A DNA stretch of 32,000 bases from Bellilinea caldifistulae (GCF_001306055.1 NZ_LGHJ01000009.1:60001-92000), one strand, 5' to 3'; positions 6,711 to 18,862 are shown, counted from the stretch's first letter. Notes: generated from the letters alone by a model not told the origin. Numbers and translations are program-made.

Positions 6711-7245
6711 GCGCATCGCACAATACAGTCGTACAATACACATTGTGAGACGCAGAAATCCTAAAAATAGCCCCAAAACCCCCATTTTTCGGGCTTAAAA
6801 CCGCCCTAAACTGCGTCGCACAATGTTTTTAGCGGGAGGAAAACGCACCCATGAACCCCATGGACGAGTATCTTGCAACCCTCACCAGTCCCCGCACCGC
6901 AGAGCGTTACCGGGCGGCACTGAGCGAATTTGCCGACTGGTACACCCAAACCACCGGCGCAAGCGTGGACTGGAACCTGCTCACCACCGTTGAGGTCAAG
7001 GACTACACCGCCTACCTGCAAACCGTCCGCAGGCTCTCACCGGCGAGCGTCAATCTGCGTTTGGCAGCCATCCGTTCGTTCCTGCGCCACCTGGGGCGTA
7101 CCTTGAAGGTAAAAGGCCCCAAGCAGGTCACGCCGCCGGTCAAGGCTCTCTCTGCCCGTGAGTTGGGCAGGCTGTTTGCCGCCGCCGAAGGCAGTACACG
7201 GGACACCGCCATCCTGAACCTGATGGCACGGGCGAGCTCACGGCT
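6711..7245 (+). repeat. Direct repeat copy A: recombination-site-like leader plus integrase 5' half
   Basis: 6711-6830 aligns with 17151-17270; the last ~57 nt differ at 3 positions. 6854-7232 aligns with 18046-18424; the encoded peptides differ at 5 of 126 residues. Confidence 0.85.
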
Positions 7246-7396: not shown

Positions 7397-8788
7397 TTAA
7401 TCAGCCGTTGCCGCCAACGCCGCGCTGCGACGCTTTTGTACATTGTAGCGAAGACGGAAAGCTGTTCCGATGGCTGCAATCACGACCATTGCTGCCAAAA
7501 CACCGCCAATTCCAATGGTCTGGAAGTTTTCACCCAGGAAGCCAGTAACCAGCATATCTTGACAGAAATACAGGAAGGTGGAGGTTGCACCGGTAACGCC
7601 CTCTACACCCTGCAGTTTAGCAACCGCATCAGCCCAAGGCGCCACAAAAATACCGGTTACAGTTGCCAAACCACCCATCAGAATGGTGGTGATGAAAGTA
7701 CGCAGCATATCACCCTTATTGGGTGCTGCTGCAAATACCCAGAAGAACAACAGAGCCGGTAGGTCAGCCAACGGTACGCTCAAGGTGCCCGGGATGATGA
7801 AAGCCCACAGAATCATCACCGGTACCATCAGCGCGGTTGTTGCCAGCACCGATGTATGCCCCACTGCAATTGCCGGGTCAACACCGATGAATAGCTGCTT
7901 GCCCTTGGTTCGGGCCTGCATAAAGGCAGCCGCTGCTTCGGAAACCGGTACCAGAGCCTGCATGACAATTCCCGACATCATGGGCAGCAACACAAGAGCG
8001 GTAGCCAGTTTGATCATCAGCATGACGATATCACCCCACCAGAAACCGGCTCCAATTCCCATCAACAGGCCGATGATACCACCCAGTACAGCCGGTTCAC
8101 CGATTGCCCCAAACCGCTTTTGCACATATTCCGGCGTGAATTTGGCGGAAGATGTGAAAGGCAGTTTATCCAGAAGGGATGAAACTGCATGGGCGAACAT
8201 GCCCCACCACACATTGAAGCCCTGATAAAAGGCAATGTTCTTAAAACCGTAGAACTTTTCCGGGTAGCCCTTGTTGGCATACCAGTCGGTCACCATCAGG
8301 TTAACCCAGCACCAACCCGCTGCCACAATCAGGGATGCCAGCACATTGTTGGTCAACGCCAGCATAATCAATGCACAGATGGTGGCTTCCCATGTATCCC
8401 AGATGTTCAGGTTGAGGGTGTCGGTCAGGTTGGTGACGATCAACAGCAGGTTGACAGCCAGACTGATGGCGATGACCGCATAGGCAATTGGGTGGCCAAA
8501 GGCAAACGCCGCATAAGCTCCCCAGCCGATGTCTGTATATGTGAAGACACCTCCAAATCGCTCGGTTAGCGCGGTGGCTGCGGGACCAACCCCGGCAAGG
8601 AAAAAGTCCACGATGATATATACACCCTGGAAACCCACTGCGATCATCAAGCCGTTACGAATGGCACGTACCGGCCCCAGCCGCACAATCAAGCCGATCA
8701 GGGTGAAGACCACAAAAATCATAAACAACGCGCCAAGATTAACGACCGGCTCTAGCAAAGCCTGAATGGTATTAAAAAATCCGTCCAT
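7397..8788 (-). CDS. PTS EIIC component, galactitol (GatC/SgcC) family
   Basis: 463-aa polytopic protein. Several blocks match my memory of E. coli GatC: 'TDIGWGA', 'NLNIWDTWE', 'KRFGAIGEP', 'LFIGVDPAIAVGHTSV'. The substrate cannot be inferred. Confidence 0.85.
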   Translation of the reverse strand: MDGFFNTIQALLEPVVNLGALFMIFVVFTLIGLIVRLGPVRAIRNGLMIAVGFQGVYIIVDFFLAGVGPAATALTERFGGVFTYTDIGWGAYAAFAFGHPIAYAVIAISLAVNLLLIVTNLTDTLNLNIWDTWEATICALIMLALTNNVLASLIVAAGWCWVNLMVTDWYANKGYPEKFYGFKNIAFYQGFNVWWGMFAHAVSSLLDKLPFTSSAKFTPEYVQKRFGAIGEPAVLGGIIGLLMGIGAGFWWGDIVMLMIKLATALVLLPMMSGIVMQALVPVSEAAAAFMQARTKGKQLFIGVDPAIAVGHTSVLATTALMVPVMILWAFIIPGTLSVPLADLPALLFFWVFAAAPNKGDMLRTFITTILMGGLATVTGIFVAPWADAVAKLQGVEGVTGATSTFLYFCQDMLVTGFLGENFQTIGIGGVLAAMVVIAAIGTAFRLRYNVQKRRSAALAATAD

Positions 8789-8913
8789 CTTGAATCCTTC
8801 CTTTGTTTTTGGAAATTGGTATTATGACTTATAGGCCGCACAGGAAAAATTCCATTATTTTGTTATTTTGTGGGTCAGTTCCTCCTCCTTCCGAATCTTT
8901 TACGGGGATGCGG

Positions 8914-9216
8914 TTAATCTTTGATCTTGGCAATTGCCTCAAAAATCTGATCAAACAATTCCTTCTGGCCAATGCCCGTCAGCAGCGGTACGCCATTGAA
9001 CACCGGCACATCATCACGCGGCGGAAGGACAGCGGTTGCTACGATGATATCGGCCTTGGTGGATTGCAGAAGGACATCAGCATCAGCAACCTTGCCTTTT
9101 TTGACTACAACCGACACATTGCGCCGCTTGGCTTCTTCTTCGATTTTGACTGCCGCCAGGGTAGAAGTGGCAATCGAAGATCCGCACATCACTAAAATGA
9201 CAGCTGCTCGATTCAT
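8914..9216 (-). CDS. PTS EIIB component, galactitol (GatB) type
   Basis: 100 aa. The N-terminal phospho-cysteine loop is 'VILVMCGSSIATST'. Size and layout resemble GatB. Confidence 0.8.
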   Translation of the reverse strand: MNRAAVILVMCGSSIATSTLAAVKIEEEAKRRNVSVVVKKGKVADADVLLQSTKADIIVATAVLPPRDDVPVFNGVPLLTGIGQKELFDQIFEAIAKIKD

Positions 9217-9222
9217 TCTTGA

Positions 9223-10365
9223 TTACATCCTTTCTGAAACAGAGGTAGATTGAAGTGGCAGTGAATTTTCTTCAAAGTAATTCCGCAACTCTTTTAGCAC
9301 ACCCAGCACATCCTCATGCGTGCCAATTGTTATGCGGAAATATTGATCACCGGGCAAGCCGCGTGCGTTGACAAAACTGCGGGTGATATAACCCTTGCCG
9401 AGCAGGTACTCATAAATTTGACTGGCTTTCAAGCCGTTTTCGACCCGAATCATCACAAAATTGGCCTGTGAGGGAATTGGATAGAAGCCGGGGAATTTTG
9501 TAAGCTCGTTATAAAGAAATTCACGATCTTCTTTGACGCGCCGCACATTTTCGCGAATGTAGTCGGCATCATCAATAGCTGCCATTGCCGCCACTTTGGT
9601 TACCAACCCAATGTTCAGCGGTGTGCGTACACGGTTGATTGCTTCAATCAATTCGGGCCGGGCAATAATCCAGCCAAGCCGAATCCCCGCAAGCCCCATC
9701 GCCTTGGAAAAAGTATGGCTGATGATCAGATTGGGATATTCATCCAGCAAATCTTCCACCGGACTGTCACCGAATTCGAAATAAGCTTCGTCAATTGCCA
9801 CCAAAATGCCTGTATCGCATAATCCACGCACCAGGTCTCGGCTGATTTGATGACCATCCGGGTTGTTGGGACGGGAGACCAGCGCCATTTTGGTCTTTGA
9901 GGTGATTTTCGATGTAAAGCTTTCCAGGGTATAGTTGAAGTCTGCATCCACCGGTAAAACGCTGACTACGGTTCCGCCATAGAGGGGTACCCGTCGAGTG
10001 TATGGGGAATAATCCGGTGTAGAAATGAGGATCTCATCACCTTCATCCAAAAATGCTTTGTACAAAAGGTCAATCACTTCCATAGAGCCATTGCCGCAGG
10101 TGATCCAATCCGCCCTGCCAGGCAGACCAACATATTCGGCCAGCTTGGCACGCAGTTCCACATCAGTATAGGGGTCTTCTGGGTAGTAATTGAGTCGGTC
10201 GGCAATCTGGCGCACTGCCTCAACCACCTTCGGCGACGGTGGGTAAACCAGTTCATTGCCCATCAGCCGGCGGTATTCAGGCTTTTGCCAACCCAGCCGA
10301 AAGTGATGCAGGTTGTAAATTTCTCCAACTTTAGCGGCTTTACTGAAAAATCTTGAGAGTTCCAT
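9223..10365 (-). CDS. Class-II PLP aminotransferase, histidinol-phosphate aminotransferase (HisC/CobD) family
   Basis: Motifs present are 'GNELVYPPSP', 'YPEDPY', 'CGNGSMEVIDL', 'RPNNPDG', 'DEAYFEF' and the PLP-lysine motif 'SHTFSKAMGLAGIRLGW'. I prefer the ATG at 10365 (MELSRFF..., AAGGA 9 nt upstream) over the track start at 10395. Confidence 0.8.
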   Translation of the reverse strand: MELSRFFSKAAKVGEIYNLHHFRLGWQKPEYRRLMGNELVYPPSPKVVEAVRQIADRLNYYPEDPYTDVELRAKLAEYVGLPGRADWITCGNGSMEVIDLLYKAFLDEGDEILISTPDYSPYTRRVPLYGGTVVSVLPVDADFNYTLESFTSKITSKTKMALVSRPNNPDGHQISRDLVRGLCDTGILVAIDEAYFEFGDSPVEDLLDEYPNLIISHTFSKAMGLAGIRLGWIIARPELIEAINRVRTPLNIGLVTKVAAMAAIDDADYIRENVRRVKEDREFLYNELTKFPGFYPIPSQANFVMIRVENGLKASQIYEYLLGKGYITRSFVNARGLPGDQYFRITIGTHEDVLGVLKELRNYFEENSLPLQSTSVSERM

Positions 10366-10411
10366 GTTGTTCGATCCTTTGCAAATGAAAATCAAAGTTA
10401 GAATGAAAAGA

Positions 10412-10870
10412 TTAGGCGCCAGCCTGCTTCAGGTGATTCAGAAGCAAACTCACCTCATTGTCCTGACGGAGTTGATGAATCTTCTCCGCATCCGAAATAA
10501 AATCTGCCAGTGCCGATAAAAAGGCGACATGATCATCCGGATCGGAGATCAATAGCAAGAACACCAGATGTGCCTGCACCTCGCCTCCCTGACCGCCCAT
10601 CGGTTCAAACGCCACCGGCTGTTGCAGGATCGCTACAATCATTCCTGGTACCAGTGTCCACTCGGCATCTGCATGGGGAATTGCAATTCCACTGCCGGGG
10701 GCATGGATACCTGTGGGATACTTTTCTTCGCGTTCCAGCAATACTTGAGTAAAACCTTCCTTAACCCAGCCATTCTGAAGGGCAGTATCCGCCAGTTTGG
10801 TGAGTAACTCGCGGCGGTCGAGAACTTGCTCAAAACGGATGATTTGCAGGGAATTCAAGACAGATAACAA
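10412..10870 (-). CDS. PTS EIIA component (PTS_EIIA_2; galactitol/mannitol/fructose type)
   Basis: 152 aa with the phospho-histidine motif 'GIAIPHAD'. It has a TTG start with a GAGGTG RBS 5 nt upstream. It is the first gene of the minus-strand operon. Confidence 0.8.
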   Translation of the reverse strand: MLSVLNSLQIIRFEQVLDRRELLTKLADTALQNGWVKEGFTQVLLEREEKYPTGIHAPGSGIAIPHADAEWTLVPGMIVAILQQPVAFEPMGGQGGEVQAHLVFLLLISDPDDHVAFLSALADFISDAEKIHQLRQDNEVSLLLNHLKQAGA

Positions 10871-11091
10871 TCGTTCACCTCAAGGTTTCAATTTTGTGAA
10901 AATACAGGAAAAGTGGGGTATCAGTTCCGAGAGCGTTCGGACTTTCTGGAATTGCTGTTTTTGATTATAGAAAAAAGCGGTTTGGTTTGTTTCATTGGTT
11001 TTTGCAAATACAACTTATGACAAAATTAGATCATTTCGACAAGTAAATCGGGTATATAAATCGCGAGCATGACACTTTATCTAGCGCAACA

Positions 11092-11128
11092 ACGTTTGAG
11101 GTAACAGGACAATAATTTCCTCAAACGT
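11092..11128. promoter_or_regulatory. Perfect 10-bp inverted repeat in the divergent PTS control region; candidate regulator binding site
   Basis: ACGTTTGAGG-(17 nt)-CCTCAAACGT, between the EIIA operon and the regulator gene. Neither side has a T-tract, so it is unlikely to be a terminator. Confidence 0.3.
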
Positions 11129-11222
11129 AAGGAGATTTACGGATTATAGTTTTGCGATCCTTTGAACTTTTCCCGAAGGCCTATCGGTAATATGAAAACA
11201 AAAAGCAAGTCATGGCCTTTGC

Positions 11223-11251
11223 TTGCCAGCGGGGGCGGTGTGGGCTATAAT
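11223..11251 (+). promoter_or_regulatory. Sigma-70-like promoter for the PTS regulator gene
   Basis: TTGCCA-17 nt-TATAAT, ~60 nt upstream of the ATG at 11311. Confidence 0.45.
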
Positions 11252-11310
11252 GCGCTGAAATTCGCAAAAAGCCAGTTAATACAAAATTGTTTTAATTATT
11301 CCAACCAGCC

Positions 11311-13395
11311 ATGCCCGGTCTAAAAATCAACATCAACCCCCGTCAGCGAACAATCATTTTTGCCCTATTAGAAAGCGATGGCCGATTGACGATTGAGCAA
11401 CTGGCCAAACGCTGCGGAGTCACCGGGCGGGTCATCCGCTACAATCTCGATACGGTGCGCGCCTGGCTACGCAATGAAGGCGTTCCCTTGCGTATCCGCC
11501 CGGGCTTTGGGATGGAGATTGAAGCCAGCCGGGTGCAGCGCAAACGCCTGCTTGCGCTCATTGACCAACCCGAAGAAGATCATCTGGTCTTTTCCAGGAC
11601 CCAACGCCATCACCTTTTACTATTTGAATTACTTTCTTCACAGCTGCCACTAACCTATAAACAACTGGCCGAAATCGGGGGAGTTTCCCGTTCAACCGTC
11701 ATCAATGACATTGAAGAAATGGAAAAGTGGCTGGCGCTGTTTTCTATCCGGCTCAAGCGGTTACCAAACCGGGGTGTATTTGTCCAATCTGGTGAGGCGA
11801 ATCGTCGCTTCGCCCTATTGAATCTGATTCGCGAAGAACTCGGCGATCGCAAATGGTACCTGCTTTGGAAACAACCGGGAGTCGGTTTTGCGGGTGACAA
11901 GTCCATCCCGCCAAGACTGGAAAAATTCCTTCGCGGCCTGCCGTTGAAGATTGCCCACATGGAGGTTGTCCGCATCGAAAACATGATTGGACGGACAATG
12001 TCGTTATATTCCAGGGTGGAAACGCTGGTTTACCTGGCAATCAGCATTGAATGTCTGCAAGGGGGCAAAGCCATCCCACCCGATCAAACTATTATTGTTG
12101 AGCACAATTTGTATTACGAGGTGGCTGTCGCAGTGTTTGGTGATTTGCGCACTCGTTACCATCTTCCCGTTACACCCGCCGAAACAGCCTTACTGGCGGC
12201 TACCCTGTGCGGTGCAAAGTGGGAATCCCCCTCGCTGGATTTGAGAGATCAGGCCAGCCGTGCCGAATTGGAAACGCTTTACCCCAGTGGAACGGCCTAT
12301 GCCAGCCAGATCACCTCAGTCTGTGCCCGTCAGCTTCATCCGCTACTTTTGCTGGATGAGGAATTATTTGCCGAACTCGCACGCCACCTTGAACCAGTGA
12401 TTTATCGCATTCGCTACCAGCTGCCCATCTTAAACGAAAACCTGCCGGAAATACGCCGCTTGTACCCGGAAATTTATCAGACTGCCCAGCAAAGCCTGCG
12501 GGAAATTGAAGAAGACCTCTATTTGACCTTTCCGCCTGAAGAAATTGCCTATATTGCCATGTACCTCCTCTCGGCGTTGAACCGTCTCAACATCAAAGAC
12601 CGCAGTAAAACCACCGTAGCCCTGGTAGGGGATGGCATCCGGGCAAAAGTATCTTTGCTGCGCGCCCGTCTTGAACGTGAATTTCCGGCTCTGAAAGTAA
12701 TTGGAATCGTCAACGGTTTCAGTAGTGAAAATGAGATACTCAACCAGGCCGATCTTATTCTTTCCACCGACCCGATTGAAATGCCCGACTATCCCATCCT
12801 AAATGTCAGCCCCTTCCTCCATCCGGCAGAAAAAAAGATGATTCAAAACTGGCTGGTGGAACGCGAGGGTCAGGCACAGCGGTATGTGCTTAGCGATGCC
12901 GAAAAACCGGAATTAATTGACTTACTGCGTCCAGATCACATATTGATTTGCGAGGAAAAACTTGACTGGCATACGGCCGTTCAAAAGGCCAGCCAGCCGT
13001 TGCTGGCAAACGGCTATATCCTGCCAGATTATGTGCAGGCAATGACGTCGATCATCAAGCAGCATGGCGCTTATATGTGGCTCGCCCCGGAAGTCCTGAT
13101 CCTGCATGCCCGGCCAGTGGATGGTGTTCTGCGGCTGTGCCTGAGTATTCTTATCCTAAGACAGCCAGTCGCTTTTGGACAGGGAACCGAACAACAGGCG
13201 CGAATTTGTCTGGTGCTGGGGGCAGTGGATGATCATGCCCACCTCAAAGCTCTGCTGGCGCTCAATCAACTGCTTCACCAGCAAAACTTCCGCGAAAAAC
13301 TGGGGCAGGCAAAATCGTCTGCCGAGGTCATTCGAATTTTCTGGTCCTCTCTGATGAATCTCAACCAGGAGGAAAACCCTGCCAGTCCCAATTAA
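11311..13395 (+). CDS. PRD-containing PTS-controlled transcriptional regulator (MtlR/LicR/ManR class: HTH, two PRDs, EIIB(Gat)-like and EIIA(Mtl)-like domains)
   Basis: 694 aa. The N-terminal wHTH reads 'QRTIIFALLESDGRLTIEQLAKRCGVTGRVIRYNL', and a second HTH reads 'LTYKQLAEIGGVSRSTVINDIEEMEKWL'. The central region is PRD-like ('ELARHLEPVIYRIRY'). The C-terminal EIIA_2-like region contains 'LILHARP'. Confidence 0.8.
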   Translation: MPGLKININPRQRTIIFALLESDGRLTIEQLAKRCGVTGRVIRYNLDTVRAWLRNEGVPLRIRPGFGMEIEASRVQRKRLLALIDQPEEDHLVFSRTQRHHLLLFELLSSQLPLTYKQLAEIGGVSRSTVINDIEEMEKWLALFSIRLKRLPNRGVFVQSGEANRRFALLNLIREELGDRKWYLLWKQPGVGFAGDKSIPPRLEKFLRGLPLKIAHMEVVRIENMIGRTMSLYSRVETLVYLAISIECLQGGKAIPPDQTIIVEHNLYYEVAVAVFGDLRTRYHLPVTPAETALLAATLCGAKWESPSLDLRDQASRAELETLYPSGTAYASQITSVCARQLHPLLLLDEELFAELARHLEPVIYRIRYQLPILNENLPEIRRLYPEIYQTAQQSLREIEEDLYLTFPPEEIAYIAMYLLSALNRLNIKDRSKTTVALVGDGIRAKVSLLRARLEREFPALKVIGIVNGFSSENEILNQADLILSTDPIEMPDYPILNVSPFLHPAEKKMIQNWLVEREGQAQRYVLSDAEKPELIDLLRPDHILICEEKLDWHTAVQKASQPLLANGYILPDYVQAMTSIIKQHGAYMWLAPEVLILHARPVDGVLRLCLSILILRQPVAFGQGTEQQARICLVLGAVDDHAHLKALLALNQLLHQQNFREKLGQAKSSAEVIRIFWSSLMNLNQEENPASPN

Positions 13396-13533: not shown

Positions 13534-13830
13534 ATGGAAATGGTGGAACAACAGGTGTTTGAACAAATCATAGAGGTTGAACACGAACACGGTTTGCATG
13601 CTCGTCCTGCGGACTTGTTTGTGAGGTGTTCCAATCAATTTTCCGCTTCAATTTATCTGTACAACCTGACCCGCAACAGTGATAAGAAAGCCAACGCCAA
13701 GGGAATTTTGGGGGTACTTTCTCTGGGAGTGCGTAAAGGGGATTTGATCAAGATTGTTGCTGAGGGGGAAGATGGCGCACAGGCCATCGAGGCTCTAACC
13801 GACTTGATCCGATCAAATTTTCAGGAATAA
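13534..13830 (+). CDS. ptsH: Phosphocarrier protein HPr
   Basis: 98 aa with the His-15 motif 'HGLHARPA' and the 'GVLSLGV' block. An AAGGAAAG RBS precedes the ATG. Confidence 0.9.
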   Translation: MEMVEQQVFEQIIEVEHEHGLHARPADLFVRCSNQFSASIYLYNLTRNSDKKANAKGILGVLSLGVRKGDLIKIVAEGEDGAQAIEALTDLIRSNFQE

Positions 13831-15599: not shown

Positions 15600-16361
15600 A
15601 TGCGTGCTTTTGAACGCCCCGAACAGGAACGCAAAAAACTCATCTCTCGCGACAAAGAAGCCAGTTTGCCTTTCCGGCTGGTGCGCTTTTCTTTTGTACT
15701 GGGTGTAGTAGGAGTAATAGGTTTCTTTCTGGCTTTCTTCTACCAGACGGTGCTTAATCGGATAGGGCTGCCCTACCGGCAGGCTCAGGCCACCGCTATA
15801 CTGGTTGTGTTTATCGCATGGGTAATTTTTACGCTGGCTTGCCGCCACCTGGGTATCAGTACACGCGGATTGACCTACCCCAAACTAATGTCTATTCTGC
15901 GCAATGAAGTTGAAACTCCGCCGGACGAGTTCAAGGCCAGCCGCAAGCAGATAGCAGCGGCTTTCGGAAGTTTGAGCGATGACTGGTGGCTTTTTCCGGA
16001 CATTTTTGCGGATGATCCCACGCAGGTACTGCCGATGGTCCTGCTCGGGCCTGGCGGGGTGTTTGCCCTGCGGGTTAATTATCAAGACCCCCGCTCCAAG
16101 GATTTTCGCGATCCGGCCGTTCCGCTCTTAACGGGCAGTCAGATGCTGGAAAAGCGGCTTGGAGTGCCAGTTAAACCCATTTTGGCATTCAGCCGCCATA
16201 CCAAACACTACCAACCTGTTCACGAAGAGGTTAAGGTTTTTACGTTTCCAGATGCGTTGACTTATGTTACCTCTCGCGAAGCTTGGCTGGACGCTCACCG
16301 ATGCAGACAGATTGGGCAGCAATTGGCCGAACTGGCCAACTTGCCTCGTGGAGCCTTGTAA
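15600..16361 (+). CDS. Two-TM membrane protein with a NERD-like C-terminal domain (function unknown)
   Basis: The preferred start is the ATG at 15600 (MRAFERPEQ...); the track start at 15558 is a TTG inside ptsI. Two hydrophobic helices are visible ('FSFVLGVVGVIGFFLAFFY' and 'ILVVFIAWVIFTLAC'). The C-terminal 'DDWWLFPDI...VLPMVLLGPGGVFALRV' recalls the NERD fold, but I cannot see the nuclease-type acidic/Lys residues. Confidence 0.6.
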   Translation: MRAFERPEQERKKLISRDKEASLPFRLVRFSFVLGVVGVIGFFLAFFYQTVLNRIGLPYRQAQATAILVVFIAWVIFTLACRHLGISTRGLTYPKLMSILRNEVETPPDEFKASRKQIAAAFGSLSDDWWLFPDIFADDPTQVLPMVLLGPGGVFALRVNYQDPRSKDFRDPAVPLLTGSQMLEKRLGVPVKPILAFSRHTKHYQPVHEEVKVFTFPDALTYVTSREAWLDAHRCRQIGQQLAELANLPRGAL

Positions 16362-17150: not shown

Positions 17151-17270
17151 CGTATCGTACAACACAGTCTTACAATGGTCATTAAAGATGTAAAACACCC
17201 AAAAACAGATCCAAAACCCCCGTTTTTCGGGCTTAAAACCGCCCTGAACTGCGTCGCACAATTTTTTTAC
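17151..17270 (+). repeat. Direct repeat copy B, site-like leader; the integrase-5' part of the repeat continues at 18046-18424
   Basis: It aligns with 6711-6830 and shares the TCG[C/T]ACAA[T/C] motifs and 'CCAAAACCCCC[A/G]TTTTTCGGGCTTAAAACCGCCCT[A/G]AACTGCGTCGCACAAT'. The two halves of copy B are separated by the phd/vapC cassette. Confidence 0.85.
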
Positions 17271-17304
17271 GCGCCACAAAGGATGCTTTCTGATTGATAA
17301 GGGA

Positions 17305-17339
17305 TTGTTTTTTGGGAGGGGAGACGGTTATAATATAAC
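17305..17339 (+). promoter_or_regulatory. Promoter and operator of the phd/vapC operon
   Basis: TTGTTT-18 nt-TATAAT, with the -10 at 17329-17334. The -10 lies inside the perfect palindrome GTTATA-A-TATAAC (17327-17339), as expected for antitoxin autoregulation. Confidence 0.45.
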
Positions 17340-17370
17340 TGGTCAGACTAGTTATTTGTGGAGGTGCGCG

Positions 17371-17625
17371 ATGAATCTCTGGCAGTTGCAGGAAGCGAAA
17401 AGCCGCTTCAGTGAACTGGTTGAGCGAACTCTGCGCAACGGCGCGCAGATCGTCACCCGGCGAGGAAAGAAGGTTGTAGTGGTGCTGTCTTACGAGGAAT
17501 ACCGCCGCCTGACTAACCCCCAGCGCAACCTGGCGCAATTTCTGCTCCAATCGCCACTGGCAGGATCGGAACTCAAAATTGAGCGGGATCAAAGCCTGCC
17601 GCGTGAGGTGGATTTACAGCCATGA
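17371..17625 (+). CDS. Type II antitoxin, Phd/YefM family (VapB-role partner of VapC)
   Basis: 'MNLWQLQEAKSRFSELVERTLRNGAQIVTRRGKKVVVVLSYEEYRRL' is a typical Phd/YefM N-terminus. A GGAGG RBS lies 6 nt upstream of the ATG at 17371; the longer track ORF starting at 17305 is rejected. The stop overlaps the vapC start (ATGA). Confidence 0.85.
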   Translation: MNLWQLQEAKSRFSELVERTLRNGAQIVTRRGKKVVVVLSYEEYRRLTNPQRNLAQFLLQSPLAGSELKIERDQSLPREVDLQP

Positions 17626-18047
17626 CTTACCTGCTGGATACCTGCGTCATTTCGGAGTTCACCCGCCGCCAGCCGAACGAGCGAGTGGTGCGCTGGTTGT
17701 CCGAAGCCGATGAAGACACACTTTATCTGAGTGTCCTTTCGATTGGTGAGATTCAACATGGGATTGAGCGGTTGGAAAATTCACCACGCAAAGAAGATTT
17801 GCGTCACTGGCTGGAAAATGATTTGATCCTGCGTTTCGATAAACGCATATTGCCGTTGGACGTCCCTACCCTCTTGGTGTGGGGAGAACTGATTGGCAAG
17901 CTGGAGCGGGAAGGACGAAAACTGCCTGCTTTCGATGGGTTGATTGCCGCCACAGCGCTGGCTCACGACCTGGCGATTGTCACCCGAAACACGGTGGATT
18001 TTGAGCCTGCCGGTGTCCGAGTGTTCAATCCGTGGGAGGAAGGATAA
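17622..18047 (+). CDS. vapC: PIN-domain ribonuclease toxin VapC
   Basis: 141 aa. 'MTYLLDTCVISE' carries the first PIN Asp, and later acidic residues lie in '...EIQHGIE...' and 'TRNTVDFE'. There is a 4-nt overlap with the antitoxin gene. Confidence 0.88.
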   Translation: MTYLLDTCVISEFTRRQPNERVVRWLSEADEDTLYLSVLSIGEIQHGIERLENSPRKEDLRHWLENDLILRFDKRILPLDVPTLLVWGELIGKLEREGRKLPAFDGLIAATALAHDLAIVTRNTVDFEPAGVRVFNPWEEG

Positions 18048-18862
18048 ACCCCATAGACGAGTATCTTGCAACCCTCACCAGTCCCCGCACGGCAGAGCGT
18101 TACCGGGCGGCACTGAGCGAATTTGCCGACTGGTACACCCAAACCACCGGCGCAAGCGTGGACTGGAACCTGCTCACCACCGTTGAGGTCAAGGACTACA
18201 CCGCCTACTTGCAAACCGTCCGCAGGCTCTCACCGGCGAGCGTCAATCTGCGGTTGGCAGCCCTCCGTTCGTTCCTGCGCCACCTGGGGCGCACCTTGAA
18301 GGTGAAAGGCCCCAAGCAGGTCACCCCGCCGGTCAAGGCTCTCTCTGACCGTGAGTTGGGCAGGCTGTTGGCTGCCGCCGAAGGCAGTACACGGGATACC
18401 GCCATCCTCAACCTGCTGGCACGGACAGGCTTGCGGGTGGGTGAGGTAGTCCACCTGCGGGTGGGTGATGTCGAAATGAACGGGCGATCAGGGTGGCTGA
18501 CGGTAAGAGGCGGCAAGGGCAACAAGACCCGCCATGTACCGCTGAACGGCGAGGTGCGTCAGGCGTTGAAAGCCTGGCTGGACGAACGCCCCCAGGGAGC
18601 AGGCGATGACCTGTTCCTCTCCCGCACGGGTAAGCCGCTATCGGAGCGGGATGTCCAGCGCATGGTGGCGGAGTATGCCCGAATCGCCGCTGTCGAAGCC
18701 ACTCCGCACACCTTGCGCCACACCTTTGCCACCCGTGCCATCGAGAAGGGTGTGGATGTGGCCACTCTTGCGGCGATTTTGGGACATTCCCGGTTGGAGA
18801 CGACCGGGCGCTATCTGCACCCGACCGCCGAGCGAATACAGGAGGCGGTGGAGGGAATATGA
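18032..18862 (+). CDS. Tyrosine recombinase/integrase, small XerC/XerD-like; the only intact copy in the window
   Basis: The catalytic signature is complete: 'ARTGLRVGEV' (Arg I), 'HTLRHTFAT' (His-x-x-Arg II) and 'LGHSRLETTGRYLH' (His and Tyr nucleophile). The only in-frame start is the GTG at 18032, which overlaps the last 16 nt of vapC. Both ATG codons used in copy A read ATA here. Confidence 0.85.
   Translation: MGGRINPIDEYLATLTSPRTAERYRAALSEFADWYTQTTGASVDWNLLTTVEVKDYTAYLQTVRRLSPASVNLRLAALRSFLRHLGRTLKVKGPKQVTPPVKALSDRELGRLLAAAEGSTRDTAILNLLARTGLRVGEVVHLRVGDVEMNGRSGWLTVRGGKGNKTRHVPLNGEVRQALKAWLDERPQGAGDDLFLSRTGKPLSERDVQRMVAEYARIAAVEATPHTLRHTFATRAIEKGVDVATLAAILGHSRLETTGRYLHPTAERIQEAVEGI

Follow-up and report, generated by a model that had tools for sequence, protein, structure and literature searches.

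In the 32,000-nucleotide stretch of Bellilinea caldifistulae DNA analysed here (NZ_LGHJ01000009.1:60001-92000, referred to below as the window), a gene for a HisC-derived aminotransferase (AT) is part of an operon encoding a phosphotransferase system (PTS) of the galactitol (Gat) type (positions 7397-10870). Comparison with related loci suggests that the AT is probably a catabolic transaminase, which is fed by the PTS and acts on a phosphorylated, amino-polyol-like cargo. A PTS-fed transaminase using a phosphorylated amino compound had been proposed in the initial annotation, and comparative genomics lends support to it. The strongest evidence comes from relatives of the operon that have a kinase and no PTS: the PTS and the kinase appear to be interchangeable first steps, which suggests that the transaminase takes the phosphorylated product.

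The phosphates that a PTS forms from its cargo are usually handled by a dehydrogenase, isomerase, hydrolase or aldolase. Were a dedicated and deeply conserved transaminase, recruited from the histidine pathway, to receive them instead, nitrogen-bearing polyols would have a new way into central metabolism. Literature searches revealed no published account of such a PTS-transaminase system.

Organization of the PTS operon

The four genes are arranged in the order EIIA-AT-EIIB-EIIC, as the initial annotation had it, and are divergent from genes for a regulator, HPr and Enzyme I (EI). The features of the region are the following (nt, nucleotides; aa, amino acids):

10412-10870, minus strand: PTS enzyme IIA (EIIA) of the Fru/Mtl/Gat type, 152 aa, TTG start; PF00359, 97 bits; phospho-histidine in GIAIPHAD
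9223-10365, minus strand: HisC-derived AT dependent on pyridoxal phosphate (PLP), 380 aa; PF00155, 182 bits
8914-9216, minus strand: PTS enzyme IIB (EIIB) of the Gat/Lac-Cel type, 100 aa; PF02302; NF007643 (GatB-like), 45 bits; Cys11 in VMCGSS
7397-8788, minus strand: PTS enzyme IIC (EIIC) of the Gat family, 463 aa; PF03611 (EIIC-GAT), 141 bits
7313-7344, minus strand: intrinsic-terminator-like hairpin with a 14-bp stem and a T run, just past the EIIC gene, ending the four-gene unit
10871-11310: divergent intergenic region between the EIIA and regulator genes, the presumed control region
11311-13395, plus strand: MtlR/LicR-type regulator with a helix-turn-helix, PRD and C-terminal EIIA domain, 694 aa, kept beside the operon in relatives
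13534-13830, plus strand: module-specific HPr; PF00381
13841-15574, plus strand: module-specific EI; TIGR01417, 600 bits
15600-16361, plus strand: 253-aa protein with two transmembrane helices and a degenerate NERD or PD-(D/E)xK-like domain

The AT reading frame can also be read from TTG 10395. The most likely start is ATG 10365, because it is preceded by an AAAGGA ribosome-binding site and fits the N-termini of the homologues (364-377 aa). With this start the AT gene is separated by 46 nt from the EIIA gene and by 6 nt from the EIIB gene, in agreement with the gaps given earlier, and the distance between the EIIB and EIIC genes is 125 nt. No terminator comparable in strength to the distal hairpin was found within the four-gene unit; two matches with 5-bp stems (around 7772-7754) are inside the EIIC coding sequence. 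The intergenic region contains a promoter-like TTGCCA-17-TATAAT sequence (11223-11251, plus strand), identified by its match to the consensus only.

The components are those of a galactitol-family PTS (TC 4.A.5): an EIIC of PF03611, an EIIB of PF02302 with an N-terminal cysteine and an EIIA of PF00359 with a phospho-histidine. On TIGR00827 (GatC) the EIIC scored 262.5 bits, below the cutoff of 542. No kinase, dehydrogenase, aldolase or isomerase is encoded in the four-gene unit or in the adjoining regulator-HPr-EI block, just as had been noted. The description of the AT as the only enzyme of the system is valid for this lineage but not for its relatives, which bring further enzymes (see below).

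The genome (assembly 99.7% complete) contains two more HPr/EI pairs, at C31:54675-56741 and C28:222779-224752, which are approximately 41-44% identical to those of the module. One of them is located about 3 kb upstream of the window and the other elsewhere, indicating that the organism has three parallel sets of PTS phosphorelay proteins. With two other pairs in the genome, the PTS of the module appears to be a self-contained cassette.

Identity and active site of the aminotransferase

The best NCBIfam match of the AT was TIGR01141 (hisC) with 269.4 bits, just short of the cutoff of 276.55; on TIGR01140 (CobD, L-threonine-O-3-phosphate decarboxylase) it scored 174.9 bits (cutoff 290.55). The true hisC gene of the organism is elsewhere in the genome (C4:74215-75339), in a hisG-hisC-hisB-hisH-hisA-hisF operon. 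Its product, which scored 309 bits on TIGR01141, above the cutoff, is 32% identical to the PTS-linked AT.

A tree of 143 rows (LG+G4) was built from database homologues, HisCs encoded in his operons of many phyla and the genome's own HisC. Pattern-based scans of genome and metagenome contigs, which returned mostly housekeeping HisC and four loci of the AT clade, served as the source of the his-operon control set. The PTS-linked AT was placed inside a clade of 114 rows, made up of sub-clades A, B and C (SH-aLRT support 96), which did not contain a single his-operon HisC. The same split was obtained with 63 rows under LG+C20+F+G4 (PMSF), with support of 98 for the clade and 99, 99 and 95 for sub-clades A (the window), B and C, these values coming from a quick search. 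In a profile comparison with the PDB, HisC structures were the top matches (E 1e-65 to 1e-43), whereas C-S lyases of the MalY/PatB type reached only about 1e-16. In the fetched set the homologues from other phyla with 30-38% identity were mostly found beside hisB, hisH, hisA and hisF, some of their loci showing no matched neighbour; no his genes were seen near members of the clade. As judged from these sequence comparisons, the PTS-linked AT is a diverged paralogue and not the enzyme of the histidine pathway. This analysis indicates that the name histidinol-phosphate aminotransferase, which its relatives carry in public records, is wrong for the genes of the clade.

The residues of the active site were compared with those of the histidinol-phosphate aminotransferase of M. 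tuberculosis (HspAT), in which Tyr25, Asn103 and Tyr127 touch the imidazole and amino groups, Met129 and, from the other subunit, Pro260 provide van der Waals contacts, Tyr261 of the other subunit lines the pocket, and the phosphate is held by Arg337, Arg346 and Asn176 (PMC4703992). In the aromatic aminotransferase of M. tuberculosis, a paralogue, the ligands of this arginine pair are carboxylates (PMC4703992). The residues involved in PLP binding and catalysis are invariant in the clade: Lys221 (Schiff base), Asp192, Tyr195, Arg229 and Asn167. R329, R344 and N167, the equivalents of Arg337, Arg346 and Asn176, are retained in clades A and B. The following positions of the pocket differ from his-operon HisC:

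Position 95 (equivalent to M. tuberculosis Asn103 and E. coli Asp85): Asp or Asn in 23 of 23 his-operon HisCs; Met or Ile in clades A and B; Met95 in the window
Position 250 (equivalent to Tyr261): Tyr or Phe in his-operon HisC; Leu, Glu or Ser in clade A; Phe in clade B
Position 121: Met in his-operon HisC; Pro in clade A, Ala in clade B
Position 118: Thr in his-operon HisC; Asp or Glu in clades A and B

In addition, the clade has gained invariant residues, Arg125 in A, B and C and Arg165 in A and B, and also Asp64, Trp26 and His21. With the PLP residues retained and other positions of the pocket replaced, the enzyme is predicted to be catalytically intact and to have a remodelled substrate pocket.

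Related loci with and without a PTS

Linkage of the AT gene to a Gat-type PTS, an expectation derived from the initial annotation, was found in at least 12 fetched loci, with AT identities down to 37%. The loci are listed with their sub-clade and the identity of their AT to that of the window:

L020, L021, L100 and L193 (clade A, 90-94%): complete PTS module, like that of the window
L192 (clade A, 74%): full module and two RuBisCO-like proteins (RLPs)
L018 (clade A, 70%): full module, two RLPs and a HAD hydrolase
L019 (clade A, 60%): full module and a HAD hydrolase
L194 (clade A, 47%): regulator-EIIA-AT-EIIB-EIIC, a DeoC-family aldolase, HPr and EI
L183 (clade A, 49%): EIIC-AT-RpiB-RLP-253-aa protein
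L185 (clade B, 39%): glutamate dehydrogenase, HPr, regulator, EIIA-AT-EIIB-EIIC and the 253-aa protein
L186 (clade B, 37%): EIIA, MttB-family methyltransferase, corrinoid protein, AT, EIIB and EIIC
L184 (clade B, and a clade A copy, 46%): clade B AT between EIIA and EIIB, clade A AT and an RLP after EIIC, glutamate dehydrogenase alongside

The order EIIA-AT-EIIB-EIIC, together with the regulator, HPr and EI, is kept in nine of them (L018, L019, L020, L021, L100, L185, L192, L193 and L194), and the linkage extends from 94% down to 37% AT identity, L186 keeping the order around the inserted MttB and corrinoid protein genes. The EIIC belongs to a subfamily of approximately 93 database clusters with identities of 44-98%, after which there is a sharp fall to 30%; the subfamily is similar in size to the AT clade. 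Eighteen further contigs were matched by their equal size in the AT and EIIC homologue lists and presumably carry both genes. The PTS-linked AT is sporadic: of the 401 genomes sampled from the order 3 had it, and the 301 genomes of the class yielded a single other case linked to a PTS.

The PTS is absent from the loci of clade C and from part of those of clade B; one locus without it belongs to clade A:

L182 (clade A, AT 52% identical): YhfZ-type regulator, RLP, class II aldolase, HAD, 2-oxoacid-dehydrogenase E1/E2, AT and PMI
L195 (clade B): sugar ABC importer, GH13 enzyme, FGGY kinase and AT; a corrinoid protein nearby
L189, L187 and L188: GntR/UTRA regulator, APC-type permease, metallophosphoesterase-like protein, 264-aa protein, AT and FGGY kinase
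L190:2747-10835 (clade C): N-demethylase resembling dimethylglycine dehydrogenase (DMGDH) and sarcosine dehydrogenase (first gene), choline/ethanolamine-kinase-family kinase, transaldolase-like protein, transketolase and AT
L196: GntR/UTRA regulator, AT and a transaldolase-like protein 45% identical to that of L190

The FGGY kinase of L189, which is xylulokinase-like, and that of L195 are 63% identical, though the ATs are in different sub-clades. The best match of the L190 kinase was GntI; L191 has the same operon as L190, but the kinase was not detected. The 264-aa protein beside the clade C AT (L189:8923-9717) has no Pfam or NCBIfam match, and a 49% identical homologue of it is encoded at L191:2012-2719.

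The AT is linked to N-demethylases of two unrelated kinds, MttB with its corrinoid protein (L186) and the DMGDH-like enzyme (L190 and L191), and glutamate dehydrogenase adjoins the module in L184 and L185. These linkages indicate that an amine, which is sometimes N-methylated, is removed catabolically. The MttB-family methyltransferase, encoded with its corrinoid protein between EIIA and AT (L186:1104-3264), scored 459 bits against the cutoff of 525 for the trimethylamine enzyme. The corrinoid protein near the clade B AT of L195 is 54% identical to that of L186.

RLPs are linked to the AT in L018 (two), L192 (two), L182, L183, L184 and L101. In a sister genus, divergent pairs of them flank the PTS-AT module (L018:3388-4710 and 11043-12326; L192:2979-4295 and 10699-11931). 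None of the linked RLPs exceeded an NCBIfam equivalog cutoff (MtnW-like scores of 305-357 bits against 409, OiaX-like scores of 208-231 against 700). The L018 and L192 proteins are MtnW-like yet below the cutoffs, suggesting an orphan function, and those of L182 and L183 had their best or near-best score against OiaX. The known substrates of RLP-type enzymes, ribulose 1,5-bisphosphate (RuBP), 5-methylthioribulose 1-phosphate (MTRu-1-P), 2,3-diketo-5-methylthiopentyl 1-phosphate (DK-MTP-1-P) and 3-oxo-isoapionate-4-phosphate, have a keto group next to a CH2-O-phosphate. A role in methionine salvage, with MtnW, an MtnX-like HAD protein and a transaminase as its enzymes, was weighed but not adopted, since the PTS link persists without RLPs and no MtnK, MtnA, MtnB or MtnD was seen. 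Microcompartment shell (BMC) genes, EutN/CcmL and BMC, were found within a few kb of the AT and RLP genes in two metagenomic loci (L183:11561-11848 and L184:14002-19035), which also carry genes for class II aldolase, DeoC and aldehyde dehydrogenase.

The genome of the window encodes no RLP, MttB or L194-type DeoC at E<1e-10. With no such protein to process it further, the product in Bellilinea should be a central metabolite.

The 253-aa protein encoded downstream of EI (15600-16361) has no Pfam match. It belongs to the module: homologues with 26-88% identity occur in eight related loci, either after EI or after EIIC. It has two transmembrane helices at its N-terminus as well as a soluble domain, for which protein-language-model features suggest NERD. 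Its AlphaFold model (pLDDT 81) matched the PD-(D/E)xK nucleases NucS, Can2 and VC1899 with modest Z scores of 7.5-8.3, and no conserved catalytic D...ExK motif was visible in the homologues. With a degenerate domain of this predicted fold and no conserved catalytic motif, the protein is probably not a missing sugar enzyme.

The module is bracketed by direct repeats of 300 nt with 97% identity (6851-7150 and 18044-18343), which represent an integrase gene's 5' half; the bracketing regions (6748-7150 and 17186-18343) also share an 84-nt leader repeat with 86% identity. In a sister species (L193) the left junction of the module is unchanged but repeat copy A is missing; its flank shares 91% identity with that in the window, the module only 79-83%. 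A PIN (VapC-like) gene (17622-18047) overlaps the start of the integrase gene. Further on, the segment 20450-29851 contains a type I restriction-modification operon followed by genes for an OLD-family ATPase/TOPRIM protein and a UvrD-like helicase (a Gabija-like pair).

Proposed route, alternatives and comparison with known systems

In the route that we envisage, phosphate would pass from EI to HPr, then to His66 of EIIA and Cys11 of EIIB, and finally to the substrate crossing the Gat-type EIIC. Our inferences concern the nature of the cargo, taken to be an amine-bearing polyol or sugar-like molecule, its catabolic use and the identity of the product. The transaminase would transfer the amino group from the phosphorylated compound to 2-oxoglutarate, the glutamate being recycled through glutamate dehydrogenase, and the resulting keto- or aldo-sugar phosphate would enter glycolysis or the pentose-phosphate pathway. 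In Bellilinea no further dedicated enzyme would be needed, and in the relatives the product may be processed by RLPs, RpiB, aldolases, transaldolase-like enzymes or transketolase. The recurrent partners (RpiB, transketolase, transaldolase-like protein, xylulokinase-like kinase, DeoC-family aldolase and RLPs) appear to fit a chemistry of C5 or ketose phosphates.

Several compounds can be named as candidate cargo. Serinol would give dihydroxyacetone phosphate (DHAP), the reverse of the characterised reactions of Cj1437 and RtxA (see below), and 2-amino-2-deoxy-alditols would give ketose phosphates. Another candidate is aminopentanetetrol, a C5 amino-polyol that is N-methylated to a variable extent. 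Among the lipid head groups of Methanospirillum it predominates (PMC11346949), and lipids containing it are diagnostic of Aquificae in hot springs (PMC4318418). Aminopentanetetrol would suit the demethylases as well as the C5 enzymes and the habitats. Against it counts that its amine, which we take to be terminal, would be unusual as a target of transamination in the HisC subfamily.

In its most specific form the proposal would make the clade one of amino-polyol-phosphate transaminases, which in nature may act on head groups of the aminopentanetetrol type, N-methylated to a variable extent, that are set free from the lipids of methanogens and Aquificae; the chance that this is correct appears slim. 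Anaerolineae sharing a habitat with these organisms would then import the head group either through the dedicated Gat-type PTS or with the help of a permease or ABC importer combined with an FGGY or choline-kinase-like kinase. N-methyl groups would be removed by MttB and corrinoid protein or by DMGDH-like enzymes, after which the phosphate ester would be transaminated to a C5 sugar phosphate, to be used by RpiB, by transketolase, by transaldolase-like enzymes or else by the orphan RLPs linked to the AT. If true, this would give functions to an orphan PTS subfamily, to orphan RLPs and to a non-pyrrolysine MttB.

A number of observations weigh against the proposed role of the AT as a PTS-fed amino-polyol-phosphate transaminase. 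The initial annotation had argued for a phosphoester substrate from the membership of the AT in the HisC family. This argument is weaker than it was made to appear: R329, R344 and N167 are retained, but the arginine pair also binds carboxylates in family members specific for aromatic amino acids (PMC4703992), so a phosphoester substrate is not proven by it. Met95, Pro121 and Leu250, hydrophobic replacements in the pocket, are more like the M. tuberculosis aromatic aminotransferase than like a site that binds polyols. Accessory enzymes vary by lineage, and the family may therefore act on several substrates. All occurrences are within Anaerolineae/Chloroflexota and are related by descent; this shared descent and the sporadic distribution of a self-contained module mean that the synteny partly reflects common ancestry or block transfer.

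The carboxylate binding by the arginine pair also counts in favour of an amino-acid-type cargo. An amino sugar acid or hydroxy-amino acid would be phosphorylated by the PTS on a distal hydroxyl and would undergo alpha-amino-acid transamination to a 2-keto-aldonate phosphate, the alpha-carboxylate being bound by Arg344/Arg329 and the distal phosphate by Arg125/Arg165, the two arginines that the clade has gained. Two gained invariant arginines do suggest a second anionic group, OiaX, against which the L182 and L183 RLPs had their best or near-best score, acts on a keto-acid phosphate, and the D-glucosaminate PTS of the Salmonella dga operon, with its PLP enzyme, provides a precedent. We consider this alternative unlikely, though deserving of some weight, because the partners transketolase, transaldolase-like protein, RpiB, PMI and xylulokinase-like kinase suggest neutral sugar phosphates, no KDPG-type (2-keto-3-deoxy-6-phosphogluconate) aldolase or 2-ketoacid reductase was seen among the partners, and the choline-kinase-like and MttB/DMGDH-like partners fit amino alcohols.

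The reaction could also run in the opposite direction. The PTS would then import a ketose, and the transaminase would aminate the ketose phosphate to an amino-polyol phosphate destined for a head group of the cell envelope or of lipids, in the way that Cj1437 and RtxA form serinol phosphate. The known DHAP/serinol-phosphate transaminases do run biosynthetically, and the HAD phosphatases beside the module in L018, L019 and L182 have a parallel in the phosphatase that follows Cj1437. Such a biosynthetic role is nevertheless improbable: an activator with PRD and EIIA domains and dedicated EI and HPr typify inducible catabolic PTS operons; glutamate dehydrogenase, N-demethylases, the GH13 enzyme with its ABC importer, and the transketolase, transaldolase-like and aldolase partners suit breakdown; and no linked transferase or ligase that could use an amino-polyol phosphate was found.

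The E. coli malX-malY operon, in which a PTS gene is accompanied by that of a regulatory PLP protein of the class I fold, raises the question whether the AT acts on the cargo at all. It could be a MalY-like regulatory or moonlighting protein or, in view of the pocket residues that resemble those of the M. tuberculosis aromatic aminotransferase (Met95, Pro121 and Leu250), a co-transcribed general transaminase of aromatic or hydrophobic amino acids. This is quite improbable as well. Every catalytic PLP residue is invariant in the clade, and the AT matched HisC structures at E 1e-65 against approximately 1e-16 for the MalY/PatB-type C-S lyases. Furthermore, in loci without a PTS the AT still pairs with a kinase and sugar-phosphate enzymes, which would be unexpected of a PTS-specific regulator. 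That the AT is a spare or condition-specific histidinol-phosphate aminotransferase, as its score just 7 bits below the TIGR01141 cutoff and the public names of its relatives might suggest, is very improbable in view of the true hisC in the his operon, the separate clade, the replacement of the imidazole-contacting residues and the lack of his genes near clade members; the initial annotation had named the lack of another hisC, with tight clustering of the AT with housekeeping HisC, as the sign of a histidine-pathway enzyme, and neither was observed.

Assignment of a function to the AT as a transaminase of PTS-delivered phosphates would have wider use. The AT clade connects several families for whose substrates there is an active search, namely RLPs, non-pyrrolysine MttB, a divergent transaldolase-like group and an orphan Gat-type EIIC subfamily, so that one biochemical assignment could annotate many genes. 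Little is known of what Anaerolineae feed on in digesters and hot springs, and such an assignment would bear on this too.

The system can be compared with four known ones. With HisC (subfamily I-beta; structures 1FG3 of E. coli, 4R8D of M. tuberculosis and 8BJ1, HISN6 of Medicago) the AT shares fold and subfamily, the PLP-binding Lys, Asp, Tyr, Arg and Asn, and also the C-terminal arginine pair by which the substrate phosphate is held. It differs from HisC in its score below the TIGR01141 cutoff, in its position outside the HisC clade and the his operon and within a PTS operon, in lacking the imidazole-contacting Asp/Asn and Tyr, and in having gained Arg125, Arg165, Asp/Glu118, Asp64 and Trp26. 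The galactitol PTS of E. coli (gatYZABCD, TC 4.A.5) likewise consists of separate Gat-type EIIA, EIIB and EIIC proteins. In contrast to it, the Bellilinea module has no polyol-phosphate dehydrogenase and no tagatose-bisphosphate (ketose-bisphosphate) aldolase, its operon encodes a transaminase and comes with a regulator, an HPr and an EI of its own, and its EIIC shares only about 30% identity with the closest EIIC from outside the clade.

Cj1437 and RtxA's N-terminal domain are transaminases that act on a small polyol phosphate with glutamate as the partner (PMC11800397, PMC3222319). Their chemistry is that proposed for the AT, in reverse; both enzymes are biosynthetic and not linked to a PTS. 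In the Salmonella dgaABCDEF operon a mannose-family PTS gives a phosphorylated amino compound, derived from D-glucosaminate, to a PLP enzyme encoded in the same operon. That enzyme, an ammonia-lyase, belongs to another fold class, and a KDPG-type aldolase follows it. The dga and Bellilinea operons thus both combine a PTS with a PLP enzyme, but the PTS is of the mannose family in the former and of the Gat type in the latter.

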